Positions 9,267-57,815 of a DNA stretch of 59,021 bases are shown here, one piece after another. The notes under the pieces are model-generated. The model did no database searches. It had not been told where the DNA came from and saw nothing but the letters and a program-made list of their open reading frames with translations. The stretch is taken from contig MU006104.1 of assembly GCA_010093705.1 (NCBI GenBank), positions 496,001 to 555,021 on the forward strand, in the 5' to 3' direction. The position numbers and the translations under genes were made by a program. Position 1 is the first letter of the stretch; every line of letters begins with the position of its first letter. This stretch comes from Patellaria atrata CBS 101060. Taxonomy: Eukaryota.

Positions 9267-10617
9267 ATGGCAGACGCTCCCGAGGACCAGACTGTGCCTC
9301 CTGTTGACCCTGCTCCAGAGGAGCTAGCAGTTGATGCACCAAAAGGTATTCTCATCGCAAGATATTTATGGAGCTTACGGTACTGACACCTAAAGATCCT
9401 GCAGATCCTGCCCCGGAACCAGCTCCCGAGCCAGAAGCAGACCCGGTACCTGAGGCGGAACCCGAAGCAGAGCCTGATCCTGCCGCAGAACCTGATCCTA
9501 CCGCAGAACCTGATCCTGCCGCAGAACCTGATCCTGCTGTAGAGCCTGATCCTGTCGCAGATCCTGAGTCGGTTGAGCCACAACCGGAACCTGAGCCTGC
9601 AGCAGAGGGTATGACCCTCCTCTATGATAATGAGACCGCAACTAATAGTGTCTCTTTGAAGAACTGGCGGAAGAACCTCTCAAGCAAGTAGTGATAGCCA
9701 CGACGGAGAACGGCGACCCAGTGGTGGTTGTTATCAACGATCCCGCACCAGAGGAAGAGCCTCCTAAACCACTTTCAAGAGCGAATACGGAACCCGTCAG
9801 GTCCAGGGCTGCATCCGTTATAGAAGCTATTGCAAGCAGAAAACCCTCGAGCGCTGCTAGCAGGAAAGCATCTGTCGCTGAGGAGGCCGCTAGCAGAAAG
9901 GCATCCATCGCTTCAGAAGCTGCCAGTAGAAAAGCCTCCATCGCTGAAGACGCCGCCAGCAGAAAAGCTTCCATCGCTGAGGATGCTGCAAGCAGAAAGA
10001 GCTCAATTGCTTCAGAAGCTGCCAGCAGGAAAGCTTCCGTAGCAGAGAAAGCTGCGAGCAGAAAGGCTTCTCTTGCTGAAGAAATCGCAAGTAGGAAGCA
10101 ATCATTGGCCGAGGCTGTCGCCAGCAGGAAAGCTTCCATACTAGCCAGTAGAAAAGCTTCAGCAGCAGAGGAAGTTGCTGAAGCACTGGCTGAAATTGCG
10201 GCGGAGGCTCCTCCACCAGCAGCGGTAGTACCACCTCTACAAAAACAACCAACAGTACCAACTGTTCCAGAAGAGAATCCAGGTAAGAAAGTCCCAGCAA
10301 CATCATTCAAGACTCATAAATGACCCCCTAAAGCGGAGTTCTTCGCTCTTCATCCTTACTGCTTTCCTTTCCGACTTGAGACTTATCGTTCAGTAGCAGC
10401 AGATCCTACAGATCCGCCCATAGACGACGCAGTTACACTCGCCGAATCAGAGCCTCCGCCTCGGATCCCACGAAAGCGTGACAAGATGAGAGCCAAGACC
10501 CCCTATGCCGTGCACGCCGCTATTCTTGGGAAAGAGGTAGCAGACAAAATCCGACCCATGCTCCTTGAAGCAGCCGCGAAGCCTACCGTAGCTAAAGTAG
10601 TCGCCGAACCAGTCTGA
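9267..10617 (+). CDS. Low-complexity repeat protein (EPDPA repeats and ASRKAS 11-mer repeats), function unknown
   Basis: ATG at 9267 (MADAPEDQTVPP). GT-AG introns ~9346-9393, ~9609-9660 and ~10283-10333 join the ORF-track pieces into one frame ending ...VAKVVAEPV-TGA at 10617. Confidence 0.75.
9400..9608 (+). repeat. Coding 18-nt tandem repeat (GCAGAACCTGATCCTGCC-like; AEPDPA/EP units)
   Basis: Near-identical gcagaacctgatcct units repeat directly in the sequence and encode AEPDPAAEPDPTAEPDPAAEPDPAVEPDPV. Confidence 0.9.
9832..10165 (+). repeat. Coding ~33-nt tandem repeat encoding ASRKAS(I/V/L)AE(E/D)A units
   Basis: 11 ASRKxS motifs counted in ORF 9691-10323, mostly 11 aa apart, with many synonymous differences between copies. 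Confidence 0.9.
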
Positions 10618-25929: not shown

Positions 25930-27875
25930 TTACACGTCTACTTCTTTCCCCCCACTCCTCTGTCGCAATTTCTCCTCCAACCTCTCCACCCTCGCCCTCT
26001 TCTCCTCCTCCAACCCCGTCCGCGTCTCCACATGCTCCTTCCTGAGCTCCTTCGTCCCGATCGCGAGACTGAACAGCACGCCCACGGCCGCCAGCGTGGT
26101 GTACATGATCCACATCTCGCTCAGACTGCCAGCGTACGCCTGGCGCGCGATTCTTCTCTGCGCTTCGGGCAGGGCGGCCACGAGCCGGACGTTCGCGCCT
26201 GCGTTGCCGCCGCCGAGAGCACGGGCTGTGGTCTCCCCTAGTGCGGCAAGGAGGGCGGGGCTGCGGGTTTGCATGCGGTTCTGGAAGACGACGCCGCCGA
26301 TGACGACGGAGATGGAGGTCGCGAGCTGGCGGATAAAACCGAACGTCGCAGTCGCGGTAGCGATGTCTCTCGTGCTAACGCTCGCCTGAAACGCGATGAG
26401 GGGAGCTTGGAAATTAGGTCCGATGCCGATGCCTGCGACGACCTGGTAGAGGATGAGTTTGGTCCAGGAGGATTTGGCGTCGATGTCGATAAAGAGGCCG
26501 TAGCCGAGGAGCATGAGCGTCATGCCGAACCAGATGGGGTCGCGGTACCGGCCGGATTTGCGGATGTAGAAGCCGGTTGCGGCACTGATGCAGGAGAGGG
26601 AGAGGGCGGTGGGGAGGACGTAGACGCCGCTCAGGAGAGGGGTCGCGCCGCGCACGGCTTGGAAGTAGAGGGGGAGGAAGTAGGAGCCCGCGATGAAGAC
26701 CATGCCGTGGATGAAGACGGTGCCTAGGGCGGCGACGGAGGTGCGGGCACGGAAGAGACGGAGAGGCATCATGGGGTAGGTGGCTAGTTTCCATTCGTTG
26801 AGGAGGAAGAGGATGATCGTGGCTACGCCGAAGAGGATGAGACAGAGTACGACGGCTGAGGTCCAGGGATGTGTCACGCCGCCGAATTCGAGGCCCATGA
26901 GGAGCATGACGGTTCCGCCGACGATGGTGAGGGTACCGATCCAGTCGATCGCCTTGATGCCGGCCCAGAGGGGCGTCTTGGGGGTGTGGACGTCGAGGAA
27001 GAAGAAAATAATGAGGAACGCGGCGCCGTCGAGGGGAAGATTGATATAGAAGCACCAGCGCCAGGATACTTTCTCAGTGAACACTCCGCCTACTACTGGA
27101 CCAAGTGCTGAAGCAACGGCCCACACACCGCCAATGATGCCGAAGTAGACAGGACGCTTGCGCTGGGAGAAGAGGTCGGAGATAGTAATATTCACTAGGG
27201 TGACCAGGCCGCCACCGCCGATACCTTGGATCGCTCGGGCCGCGAGCAGCATGCCAATATTGACGGATAATGCTGCGATAAGGGATCCGATGCAGAATAC
27301 GGCATTCGCGGCCAACAGAACCGGTTTTCGGCCGAAGATGTCAGATACCTTGCCCCATAGTGGGGTTGAAGCTGAGTTGCCTAGGAGATACGCGGAACCT
27401 ATCCAGGTATATCCAGCAGAGGAGTGGAAGTGTTCTGCGATTGTTGGAGCAGCGGTTGTGATGATTGTCTAGGTGTTGTCAGTATTGGTATGTAACTCGC
27501 TACTATAAGATGATTAACTTACGACGTCGAGGGCTGCTAGGAATACAGCCATCTATTGGAATAATCAGCAATTGATCCCCAACTTGACAACAGGATACAT
27601 ACGCATAATGCGGACATGATCAGAACAATTGTTGTTCTCGTGCGCGTCCGTTCTGGTGGAGGCCCGGATTCGCCATTGTCTGCAACGTCGCCAGAAGCAT
27701 CTTTGATCTCTTCCACAGGCTCAATGTCTGATTGAGATTCAAATTCCTGGTCCTTTTCTAGACCTTTGCTTCCATCCAAGTCGGAATTCGTCTGCGCCAA
27801 CGTTTGAGAGCTCAGTGTGGGTTCATTGCGCTCCGCGGGAACACGCATTAGCTCATACTCTTTGTTTGGCTCCAT
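25930..27875 (-). CDS. MFS drug:H+ antiporter (DHA2, 14 TMS) efflux pump
   Basis: Introns ~27601-27550 and ~27521-27469. Motifs AALD, WIGSAYLL, WGKVSDIFGRKP, ARAIQGIGGGG, WRWCFYINLP, IDWIG. Confidence 0.95.
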
Positions 27876-35056: not shown

Positions 35057-38000
35057 ATGTTGGGGAAAGTCGTCTCGTGGGGTTGCTGGAGAGCAAGCTT
35101 GACTCACAGCCGCGGTTTTGTACACGACCGCAGATTGTTCGAGAATATTCACCTCGACACCACGACTTTTGGTGCTTTGACCGCACATCATTCCCAGAGC
35201 GTTAGCACCAAGAGACCTACTCAATTAGGTTTTATCCAAATTCGCAATATGGCTTCTGTTGCGGAAGATAAGGTTGAGTGGCCTGCGCAGAGAGTTCGGG
35301 ATACGTTTCTCGAGTATTTCAAGAAAAATGGACACACTTTTGGTATATTTCTTAAGGATATAGATACGATTTGCTATTTACTAAGATGGTTTTGTGCAGT
35401 CCCTTCATCTTCGGTCGTTCCTTTGTCAGATCCCACTTTGCTATTTACCAATGCGGGCATGAATCAGTACAAGTCCATATTCTTGGGTACTGTAGATCCT
35501 CAATCTGATTTTGCTAAATTGAAGCGTGCTGTGAACACCCAAAAGGTATGTGTGATTGTAGAACCCTCTCTTAATAATGCTAACTATTATCTAGTGTATT
35601 CGTGCTGGCGGCAAACATAATGTCCGTTGATCCCGGAACCCACTATTGTTTAAAACTAATCAATCAAAGGACCTCGACGATGTGGGAAAAGACAGTTATC
35701 ACCATGTAGGTGATCCTGCCTTACACACGGGTCTCTCACTCACTATCAATTTAGACTTTCTTCGAAATGCTGGGCAATTGGAGTTTTGGGGATTACTTCA
35801 AGAAAGAGGCAATCGGATACTCCTGGGAACTACTGACCAAAGTATATGGACTAGATCCAGACAGGCTATACGTAACGTATTTTGAAGGTTACGCACCAGG
35901 TGGACTAGAACCAGATAACGAAGCAAAAGAGTTATGGAAATCAGTAGGGGTCGCAGACGACCATATCCTTCCTGGAAACATGAAGGATAACTTCTGGGAA
36001 ATGGGTGACCAAGGACCCTGCGGACCATGCAGTGAAATCCATTACGACAGGATAGGTGGTAGGAACGCTGCTCATCTTGTCAATCAAGATGATCCTAATG
36101 TATTGGAGATCTGGAATAACGTCTTCATTCAATACAATCGAGAACCAGATAAATCATTAAGGTCACTACCGAATAAACACGTAGACACTGGAATGGGCTT
36201 CGAGCGTTTAGTTTCCGTTCTTCAGAACAAAATGTCAAATTACGACACTGATGTCTTCACCCCCCTTTTTAGGACCATCCAGGAGATCACCGGCGCAAGA
36301 GGATATCGTGGTAAGTTCGGCGAAGATGACCCGGATGGTATCGATACAGCATACAGGGTCGTTGCAGATCATGTCCGGTTACTAACCTTCGCTATTTCTG
36401 ACGGCGGTGTGCCTAACAACGTTGGTCGTGGTTATGTGGTTAGGCGAGTATTACGAAGAGGTGCTCGGTATGCACGTAAATACTTTGCTACAGAAATTGG
36501 TGACTTTTTCTCAAAGATCGTCCCGAAATTGGTCGAACAGATGGGTGATATGTTTCCTGAAATCACAAAGAAGGAAGATGATGTCAAAGAGATTCTAAAC
36601 GAGGAGGAACTCTCCTTTGCTAAGAGCTTGGATCGGGGTGAAGTCATGTTTGAGAAGTACGCACAGCAGTGTAAAGTACGGGACTCTACAGACCTTCCTG
36701 GAGACGATGTTTGGAGGCTCTATGATACATACGGTTTCCCCGTAGATCTTACGAAGATTATGGCTGAAGAGAGAGGGTTGAAGATCAACGATGCTGAAGT
36801 CTCAGAAGCTCAGGAGAGGGCAAGGGAAGCTAGTAAAGGTGAAAAGAAGACTGGTGCGCTACTCGTCAAGCTCGACGTTCATGATCTAGGTGCACTGGAG
36901 AAGATGAATGACGTACCCAAGACGGATGATTCTGCAAAGTTTGGTAGGAGCAACATTACATCCGTGGTCAAGGCTGTATATCATGGTAAGAAATTTCTTC
37001 AGAGTACGAGCGAAGTACCTGAAGGTGAACAGTTCGGATTGATGTTGGATCGGACAAACTTCTATGCTGAACAGGGTGGACAGGAATATGATACCGGCAA
37101 GATTTTAATAGATGGCGAGGCCGAATTAGACGTACAAAACGTTCAAGTCTATGCGGGTTACGTTCTACATACCGGATACATGAACTACGGCTCTCTCAAA
37201 GTTGGGGATGAGGTAATCTGCGAATTTGATGAGGTATGTATATCTAGACATTTGAACCTATCAATTACTAAGCGATATAGCTTCGACGACATCCTATTAG
37301 GAATAATCATACGGGCACCCATATTCTCAACTATGCCTTGCGTGAGGTACTTGGCAATGAGGTGGACCAGAAGGGTTCACTTGTAGCACCAGAAAAGCTT
37401 CGTTTCGACTTCTCGCACAAGTCAGGTGTTACAGACGCGGAAATTGAGAAAGTGGAGTCGATATCCACAGAGTATATACGTCAAAATTCGGAGGTATACG
37501 CGAAGGATGTACCACTCGCAACCGCGAGGAATATCAAGGGCGTTCGTGCTGTGTTCGGAGAGACGTATCCGGATCCCGTGCGAGTTGTGTCGGTTGGCGT
37601 ACCGGTTGAGGACTTACTCGAGGATGTACAGAATGATGCTTGGGAGAAGGTCAGCGTTGAATTCTGCGGTGGTACTCATGTTGAGAAGACGGGTGAGATT
37701 AAAGAGCTCATCATCCTAGAAGAGAGCGGTATCGCCAAAGGTATTCGACGGATAATCGCAGTCACTGGTCAAACAGCATACGAAGTCCAAAGAGTAGCTC
37801 AGGAGTTTTCTGAGCATCTCGAGAAACTGGAGAAGATGGAGTATAGCCCCGAGAAAGAAAAGTTGACCAAGGAAACTACACTACAACTCAACCAGCTATC
37901 AGTCTCTGCACTGGCAAAAACTAAACTAAGAGAGAGATTCGCGAAGATAGTGAAGGCCAATCTGGATCATCAAAAAGCTGCTGCAAAGGTAGAGAACAAG

Positions 38001-38429
38001 AAGGTCCTAGATACGATTACGAACTACTTCACGGAGAATAAGGATAAGAGTCATCTTGTGGTTCAGGTACCAATATCTGCGAATGCCAAAGCGATCAGTG
38101 AAGCAATCAAGCACGTTTCGACAAAGGCAAAGGATAAAAGCGTTTATCTCTTCGCTGCTGACAAGTTTGAGGGTAAAGTCGTACACGGATGTCACGTGTC
38201 AGAGGTACGTGGGTATATACAAAATAGCTCCAGCAAATTCTAACAATAAATCTAGAATCTAAGCAAACAAGGGGCTTCCGCTAACGAGTGGGCGAATACA
38301 GTAGCTGCTGCCGTAGGAGGCAAAGCTGGTGGCAAGGGAGCAACGAGTGTAGGCAACGGTACGAACACGGACAAACTCGAGGAAGGACTCGAACTTGCGA
38401 CCAAATATCTGGAAAAGTTCCAGTTATGA
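35057..38429 (+). CDS. ALA1: Alanyl-tRNA synthetase, likely dual cytosolic (ATG 35249) and mitochondrial (ATG 35057) forms
   Basis: [69 protein letters not shown], editing motifs NHTGTH and EFCGGTH, GGKAGGK end. Six introns. Confidence 0.97.
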
Positions 38430-39070
38430 GAGGAGGATCACGCTATTTCATACGATCTGCACTAAGGAATGGTCGCGTATTGCAGTGGAGAGTCCTTTCG
38501 CCGATAGCATACGCTGAGGGTATTACTTCATACACTGTTGCGCTCTGAGACTTGAATTTGCGTGTTACTATCGATCTGTATGTTGAAAGATGTATAGAAT
38601 TTTCTCTGAAGAAGAGAAATCGGTAATAAGGAAGTTCGGACAAACCAACTTAAATCAGATACGAGTCATAGTTCCAGGAGAAGTTCCAATAATTAATGCT
38701 GGCTCGCCAAGCCTCAAGGGGCCGTTATGCTAATGAATCCTCCTACACAGCCCATTACTGCCTTCGGGGCGTTCACAAGCTTTGAATTTTCTCTCTCCCG
38801 TCTTCGCTCTTCTCTCTATTTTGAGGTCTTTCGTCTGTGGCGGCCTGGTATTTTACTGGTCACTCATGCGCGTCTGACCGTCCTGTCGTTCCTTTTCGTA
38901 TTACATACAGTACATATAATATACGCTCTAGTCGTTGTGCAATCGCTGCATCGTCATTCGTTTCGATCACTTGTTCTTTCTGTTCCTTCTGAGTGTCGTC
39001 GAGGTCTTTCCTTCTTCCGTTTCTTAAATTCTGGTCTTCCAATTCTCGCTGGAGGTCGAGGTCTAGGGAT

Positions 39071-40430
39071 ATGTATCCCATGATCCGCCATCCCCTCAAT
39101 CAACGTGAATATGACAAGAGATGGGCTTGGAAGTTCTGGCTTAGAGTCATCACCTTCATTTTTGCAAGTGTATCGCTAGGATGTTGTGCATATGTGCTTG
39201 CAAACCCTAGGCGGGGATATCGTTGGTCGGGATATTGGGATACATTGTCGATGTTCGTTGTAATGTGGCCGGTATATTCCCTCTGAACCATAGGAGTTTG
39301 AAGGAACGCGACTGATATGGTTGAATCTAGCTGGGAGCTTCTGTGCTGTGGAACTTAACCGCTATCCTCACCTATGTATTCTCAACTGGCCCCATACATC
39401 CCGGAGCAGTTGTCGGACTCGATCTCATCATATGGCTCGTACTATTTCTAACCGGTATATTCGGAACAATAGAAGGCGTCCAAGATGCAGAATGGAGAGC
39501 GAGAAATTACTATGGCGACAGCTCGTACGGCGATTGGAGGACTATCAATGGTACTGATACGTGGGTTCCGAACGGATATGGCTCGGATAACGAGTACGCA
39601 TGTCAGCCCTTCGACACTTGCGCAGATTCCGTAAAAGCGCAACGGCAACTTACAGACCGGGCTACGGTTCAACTGGTGGGCATGGCGTATCTATGGTTGA
39701 TCGTGTATGTTTTGACCCGATATATACCCCGATTACCGTTTTAGTCTCGTAGGAGTGTATGCTGACTGTTTTACCCAGCTTGCTCCACTTTGCGCTATTC
39801 GTATGCGGTTGCATCGATACTCATGATCGTCGTGCTAAAGCTAAAACTCGAGAAGCCACCGTCATCGCTGAACGCATAATCTCAGAGATGCAGGCACGAG
39901 GTCAGATTCGACGACCTAGGGCTACAGACGCTGCTGCTGCAATGGGACGACAGCATAAAAGTCGTCACTCGAAAAATCCTGCCCCTGTTCCAACTACCGC
40001 ACCGCGCAACTGGGGACCACCGCCGAACATGCAATATCAAGGCCAATACCAACAAGGGGGATACCAATATCAACCGCAAAAGCAGCAACCATGGCCACAA
40101 GTGCATCACCAAGTACCGCCTCAGATGCAACAGACCGCCCCGCAACCCCCGCAACGAGTTCCGCCAGGTCCACCTATGGCTTCGGGTGCAGGTACCACGC
40201 GAGCACCACCACAGTTACCTCCAATAATTACTACAACTCCTTCCGTCTCGCCCCCTGAGCCCCAAAAAGCGCAGGTAGAAATCCACACTCCCAAAGAATC
40301 CCCGCCGTTGAAAGTGTCACCACCTGGTTCCCTGTACGAGGAACCGCAACCGACGGCGGCCTCTGGAGCTGGTCCATCAACGCAAAGACCAGTATCCGAC
40401 ATTGCACCTGGCGGGATTCGGAATGTTTGA
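39071..40430 (+). CDS. MARVEL-like four-TM membrane protein with Pro/Gln-rich cytosolic tail
   Basis: Introns ~39272-39330 and ~39705-39778 join hydrophobic segments (LRVITFIF, IHPGAVVGLDLIIW, LLHFALFVCGCIDTH) to a P/Q-rich tail. Confidence 0.75.
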
Positions 40431-41200
40431 AAGGATGAGAGTCTGTTGTTCCGGAATTTTTACGTTGCTATGAAATGACATACCTGGCGGAAGAATTTGT
40501 CTCGTCGTTGCTACGTGTCTTGAACTTAAGCTGATTATTGCATTGGTGTGGAGTCTATTGAAGTTGCATTGAGATACCCCGTTCATATTTACATTTGTAT
40601 CCCTTCGTGTTATTATTATTTCAGGATAGCTTACGGCTCCCTTCTGACCCTTTTTCGTGTAATGAGGAGCGAGACGAACTTGGAAGGGGGTGGTCAAGGA
40701 GAACTACATAGTCATTTACTGGGGAGAGTTGAGGCAGATACATTCGATAAATAGTCTTGAATGAGGAAAAACCAAAGCTGTGGTATTTCTTAAATTATTT
40801 ATTGATCTCTTTCCGTCGCTGATATCGATCTCATTCTCTCAACGTTCTGAATGTTTGTTCATGTAAGCTTTGATCGACGATGCTTAGCCATGGTATTGAG
40901 TGATAAGGGTAATGGTTGGTCTGATCTTCCAATATCTTAATAAGACAGAATTGGGATTGCTTCTTCGCAACTTAGAATCTACGAGGTGAGTGTTCCTGGA
41001 ACTACAAGTAAATTGTAGCTGCTGATTCAGAAGTAATTGAATCAACCATACCTTATCATTTAGCTACAATCCCTCCCTCAGTACTCGAACTTACAAAAGG
41101 CATCACCCACTCAATCTAACCGTAATGTAAAACGCAAAACGTGTTTATAAAAAAGAAAAGAAAACGGTATTATATTAAATAAAAATAATTAAATAAAAAT

Positions 41201-41363
41201 AAAAAAAGGGCAAAACAGTTCCCACGCCCTCCGAAGAGGGCCTGGTACATCTGCTGCCCTAGCTAGGGCCCGGAGATAATGGGGGCTTTTTGCCCCCTCG
41301 GGGAGTCGACCCCCGGGATACCGATGTTGCCTAGTAGCGCTTCCACTAGGCTACCCCGGGGGC
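41201..41363 (-). ncRNA. Putative RNA polymerase III transcript with tRNA-like promoter boxes and multiple hairpins (unclassified ncRNA or tRNA-derived SINE)
   Basis: Minus strand: TTATATA at 41396-41390, A-box TAGCCTAGTGG (41353-41343), B-box-like GGGTCGACTCC (41312-41302), T7 at 41207-41201, and four hairpins including GCCCTC-TTCG-GAGGGC. Confidence 0.6.
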
Positions 41364-42036
41364 TATAGGAAGTAGTCGTAGATTTGTTGTATATAAGGTG
41401 CAAGAGCGGGCGGGTCACGCGATGGGGTGTTTTGTGTGACTCGTTTGTCTTTGGGGAAGGAGCGAGGAGGGGACAGGTGAGGTAAGGTGTTTGTTGAAGG
41501 TAACACAATAAATGAATTTTAGGGTCGTAGGAGAAGAATACCTGGCTTTTTCTCTATCAGATATGAGTCCGTCAACTCGCCTGCTTCTACTTTGTTATAG
41601 TCACTTGATTTATCATCTTCTACTATCACGGCTACCTCCTCTGTTTCTGTACGGGGAGCACTCTACTTGGATTGTCTATTTGCTCTTCAAGAAAGGTGTA
41701 GTTTCCTACGCTCGTGCAGCTTGCGTTGCTTTACCTGTTATGATATAAATACCACCGAACTCTCGTCACGCATTCGAAGACGTAAGGTAAGGTAGGTTTT
41801 CTGGCCTGTTCAAACTCAATAAGGAAAGTGTCACTGTGATGATCACAGCTTCCCTAAATATAATGCGCTTGAACTTGGCCGAGTTTTTCATAATTCAGGA
41901 CATTTAGAATGAGACGGAAGGATCCTATCCATCCTTTTCACTCATCTACACATCGATCTATTATCTGAAAGTATATCCAGCATGATCTAGTTGTATTTGG
42001 AAGTCGTTATTCTAACCAATCTGTTTTCTCTCTACT

Positions 42037-44642
42037 ATGCCCATTCAAGTCCTACCTCGAACTACAGTCCGCCAAATTGGCTCAAGTCAAAGTATTTCGT
42101 CACCTACATCAGTAGTCAAAGAACTCATTGACAACGCGCTTGACGCACGTGCAACGTCCATTTTCATTGAAATAGCATCAAACACCCTTGATACGATTGT
42201 TGTCCGCGATAATGGTCACGGTAGAAGACCGGAAAGCACTGTGTCGGAGATATTGTACGAGTAAAATCCGTGATTTCAAAGACTTAAGCACGATAGGGGG
42301 GAAGTGGTTGGGTTTTAGGGGAGAAGCTTTGGCTAGTCTGGCCGAGTTGAGTGGTGAGTTGAAGATTCTGACAAGAGTTGAGGGTGAGGAGGTTGCCGTT
42401 TGCTTGAAGATAGGGAAGGATGGGGAGATTCAGAAGTGAGTTTACTGCTCTAGTCAATCTGTCGAGCGGAGTATCCTGAATCAACACTCCACAGTCAGGA
42501 ACGAGCCTCACATGCAGTGGGCACCACCATCCGCGTCAATGAGCTCTACAAGACTCAACCAGTACGGCATCAAGCAGCCCTAAAAAAATGCATCGAAGGA
42601 GCTTGCAAGCATCAAACGTATCCTTTACGGCTATGCTCTTGTTTGGCCGTCTACGAGACTTTCTCTGCGGATTCTCAAAGCAAATACCGACAAAGGAAAT
42701 TGGGCATTTGCCCCCCAAACCCGGCGCTGGTGTTGAAGAAGTAGCTTTTGAAGTCGTAAGAAAGGATTGCGCATCTAGCTGCGGCTGGTGTGTCCTTGAA
42801 ACCAACAACTTTGAGATTCAAGCTTTTATACCACGACCAGGTGCATCTAGTAACAAGATCAGCACCGTCGGTCAGTTTCTCTCGGTAGACTCAAGACCAG
42901 TTAGTGCGCGATCCGGAGTGCTTAAGCAAATCCTCACGCTTTACAAAGACAGGTTGAAGAAACTCGGACCTAATCTCGCTAATGTTAAAGATCCCTTCCT
43001 GTATATGAATATTGTTTGTCCTGAAGGAAGCTATGATTCGAATATTGAGCCGAGTAAGAATGATGTTCTCTTTGAAGACCGCAATTCCGTTTTTCAAGCA
43101 GTGAACGCGTTGTTTGATGTCTTTTACCCGTCTAACCTCGAGATGGAATCTTCACCGACAAGCTCCGCAGGGCCTTCCTTAGGGATAACGAGATCAAGTG
43201 AAGCGCTCCTAGAAGAAGGTTCTAGCGGCCAAATCGAGGATATAGGATCAACAGAATACAGTAGATGTCCTAGGAGCAATATGTACGACTTCGACGAGGA
43301 CGATTTCCCCCCAGATCCGGAAGTTGGTCAAAAATCAGTAGTATCTGACAAAAACAATGACGACGATCAGATGCGGACCAAGGTATGTCTAAATCCTTGG
43401 ACGATTGCTGCCTTGAATGCCCGACCCAAGATTATTCCCAACCCTTCAATGAATGGTCAACCTCCAACGCCTGTACAGCGGACAACCGAACGAAACATAA
43501 GCCCGGTCACTCCCTCAAGTTAAGCAACGGCTACAATTCCACGTCTTTCTCAAAATATTCTGTTAACGCCTCACTCCTCATCACCTATCAAACTTTCCTC
43601 TTCCTAAATTGAGCATGATAGACTATCTTCAATCCCTTCTCATCAATCCACAATAGAAGAACTGGATGTGGTTGAGTCCAGGCAAAGCATTAGAGCTCCG
43701 CATGAACACTTTATACCAGCTACTTAATTCACACCTATTAATATGCCTCATCTGGGAACCCCACTTTCAGCGATACCCCTGAAACCTCCCGTCACTCGAC
43801 GTCAAGCAGCCCATCAGCAGATCCAGCGCCCTTTTAGTGATTCAACTGTGGGTTCAGTGAATTCTCAAGCTGATATCTAGTTTCCTTAGTCCCGAGTTCC
43901 ACGTAGTGCACGGAATCCACCTTTTCAAAGACCTAATCGGAAAGGCTACGTGGGATCTAATCGAGATTTGGCTAGGGAGTTTATGCTCCCTGCAGACCAT
44001 CCAACTCAAGATGACAGGAGCGAATATAATATGAGCAGGAACTCCGCTCACCTAGCTCCAGAAGGACCGCCAACGATCAGGGGTGACTCTGAGGACATAG
44101 ATGCCTTTATATCCAAATGTGTAAACCGTGATGAGAGCCCTACTACGCAACTGAAAGCTGGTGATCCGCCCCTCCGGCGTTCAACCCGTATCCGTAGATT
44201 TTCTGGAAAGAGCTCTGTAGGAGAAGAGATCAATATTCTGAAATCGACTCAAGCACAAGAGGATAGTATTCTCCCCGTTAATCCATACAAAAAACGCCGT
44301 ACCACCGACGGTCGTCTCCAGCGTTCTAAATCATCCCGGTTACCCCTTGAACGTACACCTTACGAATATCAACTGCAGAATGCCTCTACCATGTTTCATA
44401 TGACCATATCACATATTCGTGCAACACTAAATGTACAGAAGCAAAAAGGGGTGTTTGAACACTTCGATTGGGCTGCGACTCTACCTAAAGGAAATACTGT
44501 GCTCCAAGCTGATGTCTCATCCGAGGAAACTGCAGAGTGGAGCACTAGTTTGAATGAGGCCCTACAGATACTACGTGCTGGTGATCAAATTTCAATTAAC
44601 CTAGAGGAACTCCTTAGAGAGGCTTTTGCGAGGGATATCTGA
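42037..44642 (+). pseudogene. Disrupted MutL-family gene (MLH2/PMS1-type; no endonuclease motif seen)
   Basis: GHKL ATPase motifs VKELIDNALDA, DNGHG, TSK, LGFRGEALAS, and the S5-fold YDSNIEPSKNDVLF. Frameshifts at ~42223, the A7 run 42582-42588 and the C6 run 42711-42716. In-frame stops at 43521, 43605, 43725, 43878 and 43887. Confidence 0.85.
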
Positions 44643-45575
44643 GTGCACATTTTGAGTCATCTCCAAGCGTCTACATCTCCGATTTACCCTCCAGATATTA
44701 CATACTATGCTCAAAAATACTGTGAGCACACATCTCCAGAATCTTCAGACTTATTTGACCCAATTTCTTTCTCCAGCAAGTGCCGTCTCCAAGTCCATGT
44801 TTACGTACTCGGGTTGCAAAGCCTCACACGAAAAGTGTAATCATTTTGTCAAGAAGATAATTTATATATATATATATAGTCCAATAATATATTAGATTAC
44901 CCCTTAGCCCCCTCAAGCCACTCATCGCTTGTCCATTATACACGCGCCCAGCTAACGCCATGGGGGCTGATCTTCTACATGCTACACCAATATCATAACT
45001 CTAAAATTCTCCGGCCCACATGATTGGACAAGAGGAAAGTATAACAATACAAACAACGTGCCGAACCGCAAGGTACATTAAGGCCAACCGGTATAGTGGA
45101 AAGGTAACCTTCGATGCGGGGTGTTAGTTGGACAACGTAATCTAGGCACTATATAGGAAACGTGAATCTTCACACTCTGTGCGCGGGGCAGATTTTTCTT
45201 ACTTGTGGAGGAATTTGAGCGCTTACTGTGCGCGAAGGGGAGCTTGGGGGGTTTATATGAATGTTAAATTTGAGGATGATATAGGGAAGAGGTGTGAGTT
45301 GGATGTGAGAAGGTTTCGGTATTGTTATAAGACCGGACATAGGCCTGGTAGTGGAGGTTTCTAGATTCGAAGGCTTTTTAGGGCTTCTGATTACCTTTTA
45401 ATTCTCTTCGTTGTTTAGTACTTCTTTTCGTCTGTTTTGGTTCGCGCTCTAGTAGCTGCGTTTCTTCGTTTCTGTACTACTCTCTCACTAAGCAGAGTCC
45501 GGTTATACCAACACTACAATACCCGCAATAACGAATCCCCTATTCTACTCAACGCTCCGGTCCTTCACACTAACA

Positions 45576-46564
45576 ATGCATCCCGCACCCCTTTTCCTCC
45601 TCCCCCTCCTTGCCCCCCTCATACACGCCGCCCCCACCGCCACGAAAAGCCTCTGGCAGCCCCGTCCCGGCAGCAGCTGGCAAATCGTGCTGTCGGCCGA
45701 ACTCGACGCCTCACGGCGCCTGACGCCCGACACCGCCGTCTTCGATTTGGATCTCTTCGACACGTCGGCCGAGACGATCGCGCAGCTGCACGCGAGGGGG
45801 AAGAAGGTGATTTGCTATTTCAGCGCCGGGTCGTACGAGGAGTGGAGGGAGGATGCGGATTCGTTTGCGCGGACGGATATGGGGAGGGAGTTGGATGGGT
45901 GGGAGGGGGAGAGGTGGTGAGTTGCGTTTTTCTGTTTTATGGGAAACTGGACCCTCTGAGAGATGTGTGTTTGGGAATCTTGGGTTGATTATGAGGGTGT
46001 AGGCTTGATACACGCTCGAAGAACGTGAGGAACGTTATGAAGAAGCGGATTGATCTTGCGGCGACCAAGGGGTGTGACGCCATTGACCCTGACAACGTCG
46101 ATGGTTTCGTAAGTAGTCCGCGCTGAACCCCTTTCCCCGTGTAGCGATCTAACGAAAAACAGGAGAACAGAAACGGTCTCAACCTTCGCGAATCCGACGC
46201 GGTTTCCTACGTCCGATTCCTAGCCCAGACAGCCGCATCAAAGGGCCTCAGCACCGGTCTCAAGAACGCGCAGTCCATCGTTCGGGACGTGTTGGACGTC
46301 GTGCAGTTTTCCGTCAACGAACAATGCCACGAATACCGCGAGTGCGGCGAATATCGTCCGTTCATCAACGCTGGGAAACCCGTGTTTAATATCGAGTATC
46401 CTCCTACTGCACCACGAGTGCCGGCGAGGATCAGAACCAATCTTTGCTCCGCGTATGCGGGAGGTGATGCGAGCGGGTTCTCCACCATTATCAAAGGTAT
46501 GGATTTGGACGGTTGGGTCCAGCTTTGCGAGGGGACCTCAGCGACGACGGAAACTCTCAAGTGA
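45576..46564 (+). CDS. Secreted GH114 endo-alpha-1,4-polygalactosaminidase (Ega3-like)
   Basis: Signal peptide, WQPRPGSSWQIVL, VICYFSAGSYEEWRED, KGCDAIDPDNVDG, GLKNA, VNEQC, KPVFNIEY. Introns ~45917-46002 and ~46109-46161. Confidence 0.92.
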
Positions 46565-57678: not shown

Positions 57679-57815
57679 AACGACCTGACTGTACAACATG
57701 ATTTGACTGTATTAAATGATTTGACTGTACAAAATGATTTGACTGTACAGAATGATTTGCCTGTACAAAATTATTTGACTCTACAAAATGACTTGACTAT
57801 ACAGAATGACTTGAC
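57679..57815 (+). repeat. 18-bp minisatellite, ~7.6 copies (consensus AATGATTTGACTGTACAA)
   Basis: Units read directly from the sequence. They lie in frame in the 85-aa ORF 57589-57846 as NDLTVQ repeats. Confidence 0.9.

Follow-up and report, generated by a model that had tools for sequence, protein, structure and literature searches.

A GC-rich island in an intergenic gap

The element described here lies on the minus strand at positions 41201..41363 of the window, i.e. the whole 59,021-nt stretch of DNA that was analysed. It occupies an intergenic gap. The ORF upstream of it stops 770 nt before the element, and ~680 nt beyond the element a MutL-family gene begins. The ORF directly upstream of the gap is P,Q-rich and 225 aa long (39753-40430, plus strand), with no Pfam match. 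The MutL-family gene, also on the plus strand, begins near 42040, with HATPase_c_3 in 42016-42264 and features of the DNA_mis_repair type in 42543-43523. An alanyl-tRNA synthetase gene is located at 35767-38243. In a collection of 15 billion proteins the MutL-family ORF at 42588-43520 (plus strand) is a singleton at 90% identity, carrying no names; no close relative of the species therefore seems to be present in that collection.

Read on the minus strand, the element runs from a G at 41363 (taken as +1) down to a run of seven T nucleotides at 41207-41201 (+157 to +163), which may serve as a Pol III terminator or mark the beginning of a T-rich tail. It is ~160 nt long and its borders in base composition are sharp, with a G+C content of 64% against 22% in the 108 nt on the 3′ side and 49% in the 97 nt on the 5′ side. 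Ten stretches of at least 156 nt in the window reach the G+C content of the element, and only one of them has limits that coincide exactly with those of the element. Perfect GC-rich hairpins with a stem of at least 6 bp are not a general feature of this DNA, since there are only five in the 59-kb window, two of which are inside the element. Directly 3′ of the T run, Tandem Repeats Finder reports an AT-rich unit of 14 nt in perfect tandem (2.1 copies at 41174..41202, minus strand), which may be either a microsatellite-like tail or mere flanking sequence. The element has no A-rich tail, and the flanking sequence reads A before its 5′ end and T after its 3′ end. We conclude that the observation is real and non-random; there is a GC-rich, hairpin-packed island of ~160 bases at this position, with promoter boxes of the tRNA type.

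We note separately that the most GC-rich kilobase of the window (64%), at 25930-27468 on the minus strand, codes for an MFS transporter (MFS_1, E 9.5e-45; TRI12-like).

The features that a sequence-only reading of this DNA had listed (i.e. TTATATA, an A box, a B-box variant, a T-arm-like hairpin, GC hairpins and the T run) are all found on the minus strand at the offsets it had claimed. The TTATATA motif is at 41396-41390 (-33 to -27), in the flank and outside the GC-rich island. The A box TAGCCTAGTGG at 41353-41343 (+11) matches the consensus TRGCNNAGTGG perfectly, and it also provides the 5′ arm of the inner stem of the first hairpin described below. The B-box variant GGGTCGACTCC at 41312-41302 (+52) departs from the B-box pattern by one mismatch and lies inside the T-arm-like hairpin.

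Chance expectations differ between these motifs. The strict A box occurs three times in the window, each time on the minus strand, whereas 300 dinucleotide shuffles contained 0.74 on average. For the B-box form GKTCGANNCC the count is likewise three, against a shuffle mean of 3.5. A looser A-to-B pair, on one strand with a spacer of 20-60 nt, has only two matches in the window; these overlap, starting at 41353 and 41348, and both are in the element. The loose form alone would be expected ~2.3 times per shuffle by chance. The pair starting at 41353 also fits the strict A box together with the GKTCGANNCC form of the B box, and for such a strict pair we estimate a chance of ~0.001 per window, a figure obtained by arithmetic from the shuffle rates of the separate boxes and not from direct shuffling of the pair. 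The element is thus the one place in the window that combines a strict A box at +11 with a one-mismatch B box at +52, as would be expected of a SINE. The other two strict A boxes, at 35443 and 22628 on the minus strand, have no B box 20-60 nt downstream and are probably due to chance, because ~0.74 are expected per window. At the level of sequence, the arrangement of TATA, A and B boxes and oligo-T is a type-2 Pol III-like layout, as had been proposed.

Predicted fold and comparison with known RNAs

The 161-nt RNA read from the minus strand has a predicted folding energy of -85.3 kcal/mol. Shuffled sequences have a mean of -65.7 kcal/mol, giving a z-score of -4.72, and none of 200 shuffles folded as well. 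For the plus-strand RNA the predicted energy is -74.8 kcal/mol with a z-score of -2.27, and 4 of 200 shuffles were as good. In the minimum-energy fold of the minus strand 4 of the 50 pairs are G-U, and by reading there are no A-C mismatches within the stems. The preference of the fold for the strand carrying the promoter boxes, which had been noticed from the letters, is therefore borne out. The G-U pairs and the difference of 10.5 kcal/mol between the strands point to structure at the level of RNA, although they favour this only weakly.

The minimum-energy fold is a chain of four hairpins, H1 to H4, all read on the minus strand. H1 (41309..41363) is an extended hairpin of 55 nt, in which an outer stem of 12 bp is followed by an inner stem of 9 bp and a loop of AAGCG; its pair probabilities are 0.61-1.0. 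H2 (41281..41297) is the hairpin GGGGGC-AAAAA-GCCCCC, with a predicted energy of -12.4 kcal/mol and a pair probability of 0.88. H3 (41256..41269, GCCCT-AGCT-AGGGC) is weak, having a pair probability of 0.008 in the ensemble, and is the most variable part between copies. H4 (41208..41259) is a closed extended hairpin of 51-52 nt that corresponds to the conserved 3′ module discussed below; at its tip is GCCCTC-TTCG-GAGGGC (41226-41241), with a cUUCGg loop. When H4 is folded alone its predicted energy is -30.1 kcal/mol with a z-score of -4.35, and again none of 200 shuffles was as good. The T-arm-like hairpin CGGGG-GTCGACT-CCCCG (41299..41315) contains the B-box variant at 41302-41312. It overlaps H1 and competes with it, and in the ensemble of the full RNA it has a pair probability of 0.03.

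The sequence-only reading had given GGGGGCAAAA three mutually exclusive partners, and had taken this as a hint of alternative folds. All three partners are indeed complementary in sequence, but the full-RNA ensemble populates only the segment's own hairpin (pair probability 0.88), while the acceptor-like pairing has a probability of 0.00 and pairing with the 3′ UUUUGCCC one of 0.001. The complementarity thus stands, while the ensemble gives the alternative folds no support. When the isolated 73-nt head is made to adopt an acceptor stem, a single long arm and a T arm, its energy is -39.4 kcal/mol compared with a minimum of -42.3 kcal/mol, so that this three-helix tRNA-like fold is only 2.9 kcal/mol above the minimum-energy fold of the head.

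The element has some resemblance to tRNA and mascRNA (RF00005 and RF01684 respectively): its A and B boxes are at +11 and +52, it contains a T-arm-like hairpin, and its sequence allows an acceptor-like GCCCCC/GGGGGC pairing of 6 bp, followed by A. It differs from them in having no anticodon arm. A tRNA gene was considered and rejected, as there is neither a cloverleaf nor an anticodon arm. ARAGORN found no tRNA in the window, and under relaxed settings gave only low-grade junk calls on both strands; the Rfam tRNA model (RF00005) is not listed at E<=10 in either 501 nt or 83 nt around the element. The earlier statement that no normal cloverleaf is formed is thus correct. The best Rfam match at E<=10 is to the mascRNA model (RF01684), at 15.4 bits against a gathering score of 42.5 (E 0.45 over 83 nt); this weak match rests on the T arm. 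Covariance models for 5S, U6, SRP, RNase P/MRP, snoRNAs, vault and Y RNAs gave no match, with only chance-level rows at E<=10, and Rfam 15 gave no match at the gathering score anywhere in the window. The element is neither a tRNA nor a member of a known Rfam RNA family, in agreement with the previous failure to place it in one.

Searches of other collections were also made. A stop-to-stop frame of 53 aa across the element has no candidate homologue in the protein collection. A 20-nt pattern of the UUCG hairpin found a single locus in a metagenome scan (L001), where an unrelated hairpin with a T run shares the pattern only. Patterns of the module and of the head had no matches in the genome-contig and viral-contig collections, and four stretches of 20-23 nt of the element had none in the full texts of open-access papers and bioRxiv, to which that search was confined.

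A dispersed family with a conserved 3′ module

Within the 59-kb window the element has no second copy by BLASTN with a word size of 7 (best E 0.6). Copies elsewhere were assessed from the contigs of two runs (X1 and X2) made from one sample of the same organism in one study, probably from DNA; that sample may be the source of the window's own assembly. Contigs were aligned to 36000-46000 of the window at an identity of at least 90%, with 41173-41208 masked in the comparison. The loose ends of clipped contigs were read over 30 letters each, and these were aligned by eye and not by computation.

There are 18 aligned records in X1 and 25 in X2, most of which are other contigs that match only from 41209/12 to 41256/60, with identities of 90-99%. 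In both runs the window's own contig has single-copy depth (318.5 in X1, 444.9 in X2), and it breaks at 41212. The segment 41209-41259 is found in at least six different long contigs in each run (2.0-33.5 kb), with 1-4 differing letters, and the depth of these long contigs is also that of single-copy sequence (312-319 in X1, against 318.5 for the own contig). At 41226 the summed depth corresponds to 16.7 copies in X1 (5334/318.5) and to 15.1 copies in X2 (6730/444.9), i.e. ~15-17 copies of the 3′ module (H4) per genome. At 41260 the depth corresponds to 3.0 copies in both runs, and at 41263-78 to ~2 copies in X1, so that the 3′ module is about five times commoner than the adjoining upstream part. 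Some 5 copies have the same one-base deletion at 41226, and this suggests a subfamily.

In 13 of the 14 records shown besides the window's own contig, the similarity ends at 41256-41260, which is exactly where the H4 stem has its base. About three copies extend past this border at the same level of identity; others, judged by eye, continue as diverged sequence. At least two further copies share the middle part of the element. A contig of 64 nt covers 41243-41304 with one substitution and four single-base indels, all in or beside H3; the indels of this second copy are at 41260, 41263, 41272 and 41278. Another contig reaches 41317, and thus spans the B-box region. By eye, four of the five distinct types of loose end can still be aligned with the window through shared anchors and indels, and in three of these a small GC hairpin, differing in sequence, occupies the position of H3. 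The remaining type, behind 41254, does not resemble the window.

The element is thus one member of a small dispersed repeat family, in which a well-conserved 3′ module with its limits at the base of the H4 stem is joined to a more variable body. The sequence-only reading had named many dispersed decayed copies with target-site duplications as a result that would make the element an ordinary SINE, and the first half of this, the dispersed copies, is what was found. The proposal of a unique functional ncRNA gene is undercut by the presence of ~15-17 copies of the 3′ third in separate contigs.

Origin of the family

Membership of a small dispersed family removes the reading as a unique novel ncRNA and favours that as a SINE. 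Our best explanation, which we rate at around an even chance, is that it belongs to a family of short non-coding repeats, dispersed at low copy number through the nuclear genome of this ascomycete, and that it is most probably a non-autonomous retroposon of the SINE type. The motifs, the strand-specific fold, the presence of many dispersed copies and the better conservation of the 3′ module are observed, whereas Pol III transcription, retroposition and the existence of a partner LINE are inferred. The features that fit a SINE are the short length, the A and B boxes within a degenerate tRNA-like head, the variable body, the conserved terminal stem-loop, the T-rich end, the low copy number and the dispersal. 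The non-coding unit of ~160 nt is within the usual length range of SINEs (~100-600 bp). Its copies are dispersed over separate contigs of single-copy depth (in one sample), and a tail form is present in the T run with the 14-nt AT-rich tandem.

Other marks of a SINE were sought and were not seen. Comparison of 111 nt upstream with 126 nt downstream of the element revealed no target-site duplication of at least 7 exact bases, or of at least 10 with one mismatch, as had also been reported from the letters alone; in the AT-rich flanks of one copy a shorter one would not stand out. As to an origin of the head from tRNA, 5S or 7SL RNA, only the A box and the T arm resemble tRNA and the covariance models gave no match; the head is not detectably derived from a tRNA. 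No LINE or reverse transcriptase was seen in the 59-kb window. The designation as a SINE is favoured but unproven. Of the earlier suggestion of a SINE master copy, only the SINE part is retained, as the best reading.

On the SINE reading, the degenerate tRNA-like head would be bound by TFIIIC through its A and B boxes, which are internal to the element, and Pol III would start near 41363 and stop at the T run to give an RNA of ~155-160 nt composed of GC hairpins. The 3′-terminal stem-loop (41208-41259), together with the U/T-rich sequence, could then be a handle for the reverse transcriptase of a partner LINE, which would use it for target-primed reverse transcription. The middle hairpins would be free to vary.

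In stringent-type LINE/SINE pairs the reverse transcriptase recognises a 3′ stem-loop. The element is similar to these pairs in having, beside a short repeat tail, a conserved terminal stem-loop that is better kept than the body; a partner LINE and its recognition of the stem-loop are postulated here.

SINEs that end in T runs or T-rich microsatellites, with a 3′ end in common with LINEs of the RTE clade, are known in plants and animals (PMC6007223). Plant Au-like SINEs, AFROSINE and Sauria SINE (PMC6007223) resemble the element in that they end in a T run or in T-rich sequence like a microsatellite, and in that their 3′ region is conserved, as is usual where it is shared with a LINE. The signature given there for RTE-mobilised SINEs, i.e. 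a stretch of T ~10 nt upstream of a target-site duplication that begins with T (PMC6007223), is not seen in the 5′ flank of the element.

Among fungal SINEs, AfuSINE2 of Aspergillus fumigatus is 140-493 bp long and of low copy number, with degenerate A and B boxes and with heads for which no cloverleaf fold is obtained, and nrs1 has 11 copies (PMC5063351). The element shares with AfuSINE2, MgSINE, Foxy and nrs1 its short non-coding nature, low copy number, 5′ motifs like A and B boxes, non-cloverleaf head and gene-rich location (PMC5063351). It differs from AfuSINE2 and the other fungal SINEs as described there in that no target-site duplication was found here and no tRNA ancestor can be named (PMC5063351), and the likeness is one of description and not of sequence. 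Its tail is T-rich, where AfuSINE2-1a has ACT repeats (PMC5063351).

The family might alternatively consist of the 5′-truncated 3′ ends of a LINE or other retroelement, with the 3′ stem-loop as the handle in the LINE 3′ UTR, and with the A and B boxes and TATA arising by chance in GC-rich palindromic sequence. We regard this as unlikely, though as deserving some weight. It would fit with the 3′ module being about five times more abundant than the sequence upstream of the module, and with the failure of the tRNA model to match the head. The loose-end type behind 41254 that is unlike the window would also be expected, given a shorter truncation or a different upstream context. However, random 5′ truncation predicts a spread of borders, whereas these pile up at 41256-41260. 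Moreover, the GC-rich island starts sharply at 41363, and the strict combination of A at +11 and B at +52 has an estimated chance of ~0.001 per window. One contig carries 102 letters past 41259 before it ends, compared with 104 in the window copy, which hints at a common unit length, although the end of a contig is weak evidence. Somewhat less probable is a set of ~15 non-mobile genes for Pol III-transcribed structured small RNAs, having a common 3′ domain and variable 5′ and middle hairpins, with a head that is perhaps cut off as a tRNA mimic. The Pol III-like layout with its upstream TATA and the strong, strand-specific fold are consistent with such genes. So is the three-helix tRNA-like fold of the 73-nt head, only 2.9 kcal/mol above the minimum, as is the fact that the best Rfam match, weak as it is, is to the tRNA-like mascRNA (E 0.45, 83 nt). 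In four other copies, as judged by eye, the H3 position still holds a small GC hairpin whose stem or loop has changed in sequence, yet this is weak evidence because short GC-rich sequence forms small hairpins easily. Gene status is disfavoured by the lack of any match in Rfam and by the many indels that separate the copies, one of which seems to be truncated. A variant of the idea, to which we give marginally less credence again, is that the ~15 copies are a family of structured RNAs made by Pol III, whether mobile or domesticated. These would have a constrained 3′ UUCG stem-loop, upstream hairpins kept by compensatory change, and a tRNA-mimic head (acceptor-like stem, one long arm and T arm) recognised by tRNA-processing enzymes.

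Mobility or recombination at the level of DNA seems improbable to us. The element would then be a MITE, a Helitron-type end with a 3′ hairpin, or the nuclear equivalent of palindromic GC clusters, and a chain of GC palindromes set in AT-rich DNA, with a conserved 3′ hairpin module, varying upstream sequence, and flanks reading A (5′) and T (3′), has the appearance of such elements. Yet there are no terminal inverted repeats; no inverted pair joins 41201-41230 with 41340-41363, and since the ends are not linked in this way the element is not a MITE. Helitrons have 5′-TC and 3′-CTRR termini with a hairpin near the 3′ end. Here a hairpin is present, but the termini read GC... and ...GCCC, so that a Helitron end was rejected, and the G-U pairs with the strand difference of 10.5 kcal/mol point to RNA-level structure instead. 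A single-copy gene for a novel ncRNA is the least credible possibility, and a very improbable one. The lack of a second copy in the 59-kb window and of any Rfam or tRNA match would agree with it, but it is contradicted by the ~15-17 genomic copies of the 3′ module and the at least two further copies of the middle part, unless those contigs are artefacts.

Elements as short as 160 nt may escape repeat-induced point mutation, and this could be the reason why the element has kept its GC-richness. If it is a SINE, it is a clean and compact example of 160 nt in which the A and B boxes look intact, the 3′ stem-loop is sharply conserved and the end is rich in T, and it would point to a partner LINE with stringent 3′-end recognition in an ascomycete. 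Few fungal SINE families have been described, about ten in the list given by PMC5063351, to which 15 oomycete families are added. If instead the copies are a family of structured RNAs, they would constitute a kind of fungal small RNA that has so far gone undescribed. We may also speculate that a site bound by Pol III and TFIIIC ~680 nt upstream could affect expression of the MutL-family mismatch-repair gene.

The window contains some other repeats. A second small repeat is located at 45631-45685, in the GC-rich ORF region 45543-45859. Here there is an extra X1 contig (depth 353.6, compared with 318.5) with a loose end of 89 letters before 45631. At 9467-10083, within the overlapping ORFs of 9642-10323, there are tandem repeats that keep the reading frame, their periods being 18 and 33/66/99 nt; they probably belong to a repeat-containing protein. 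At 57686-57815 an 18-nt unit is repeated 7.2 times with 86% identity.
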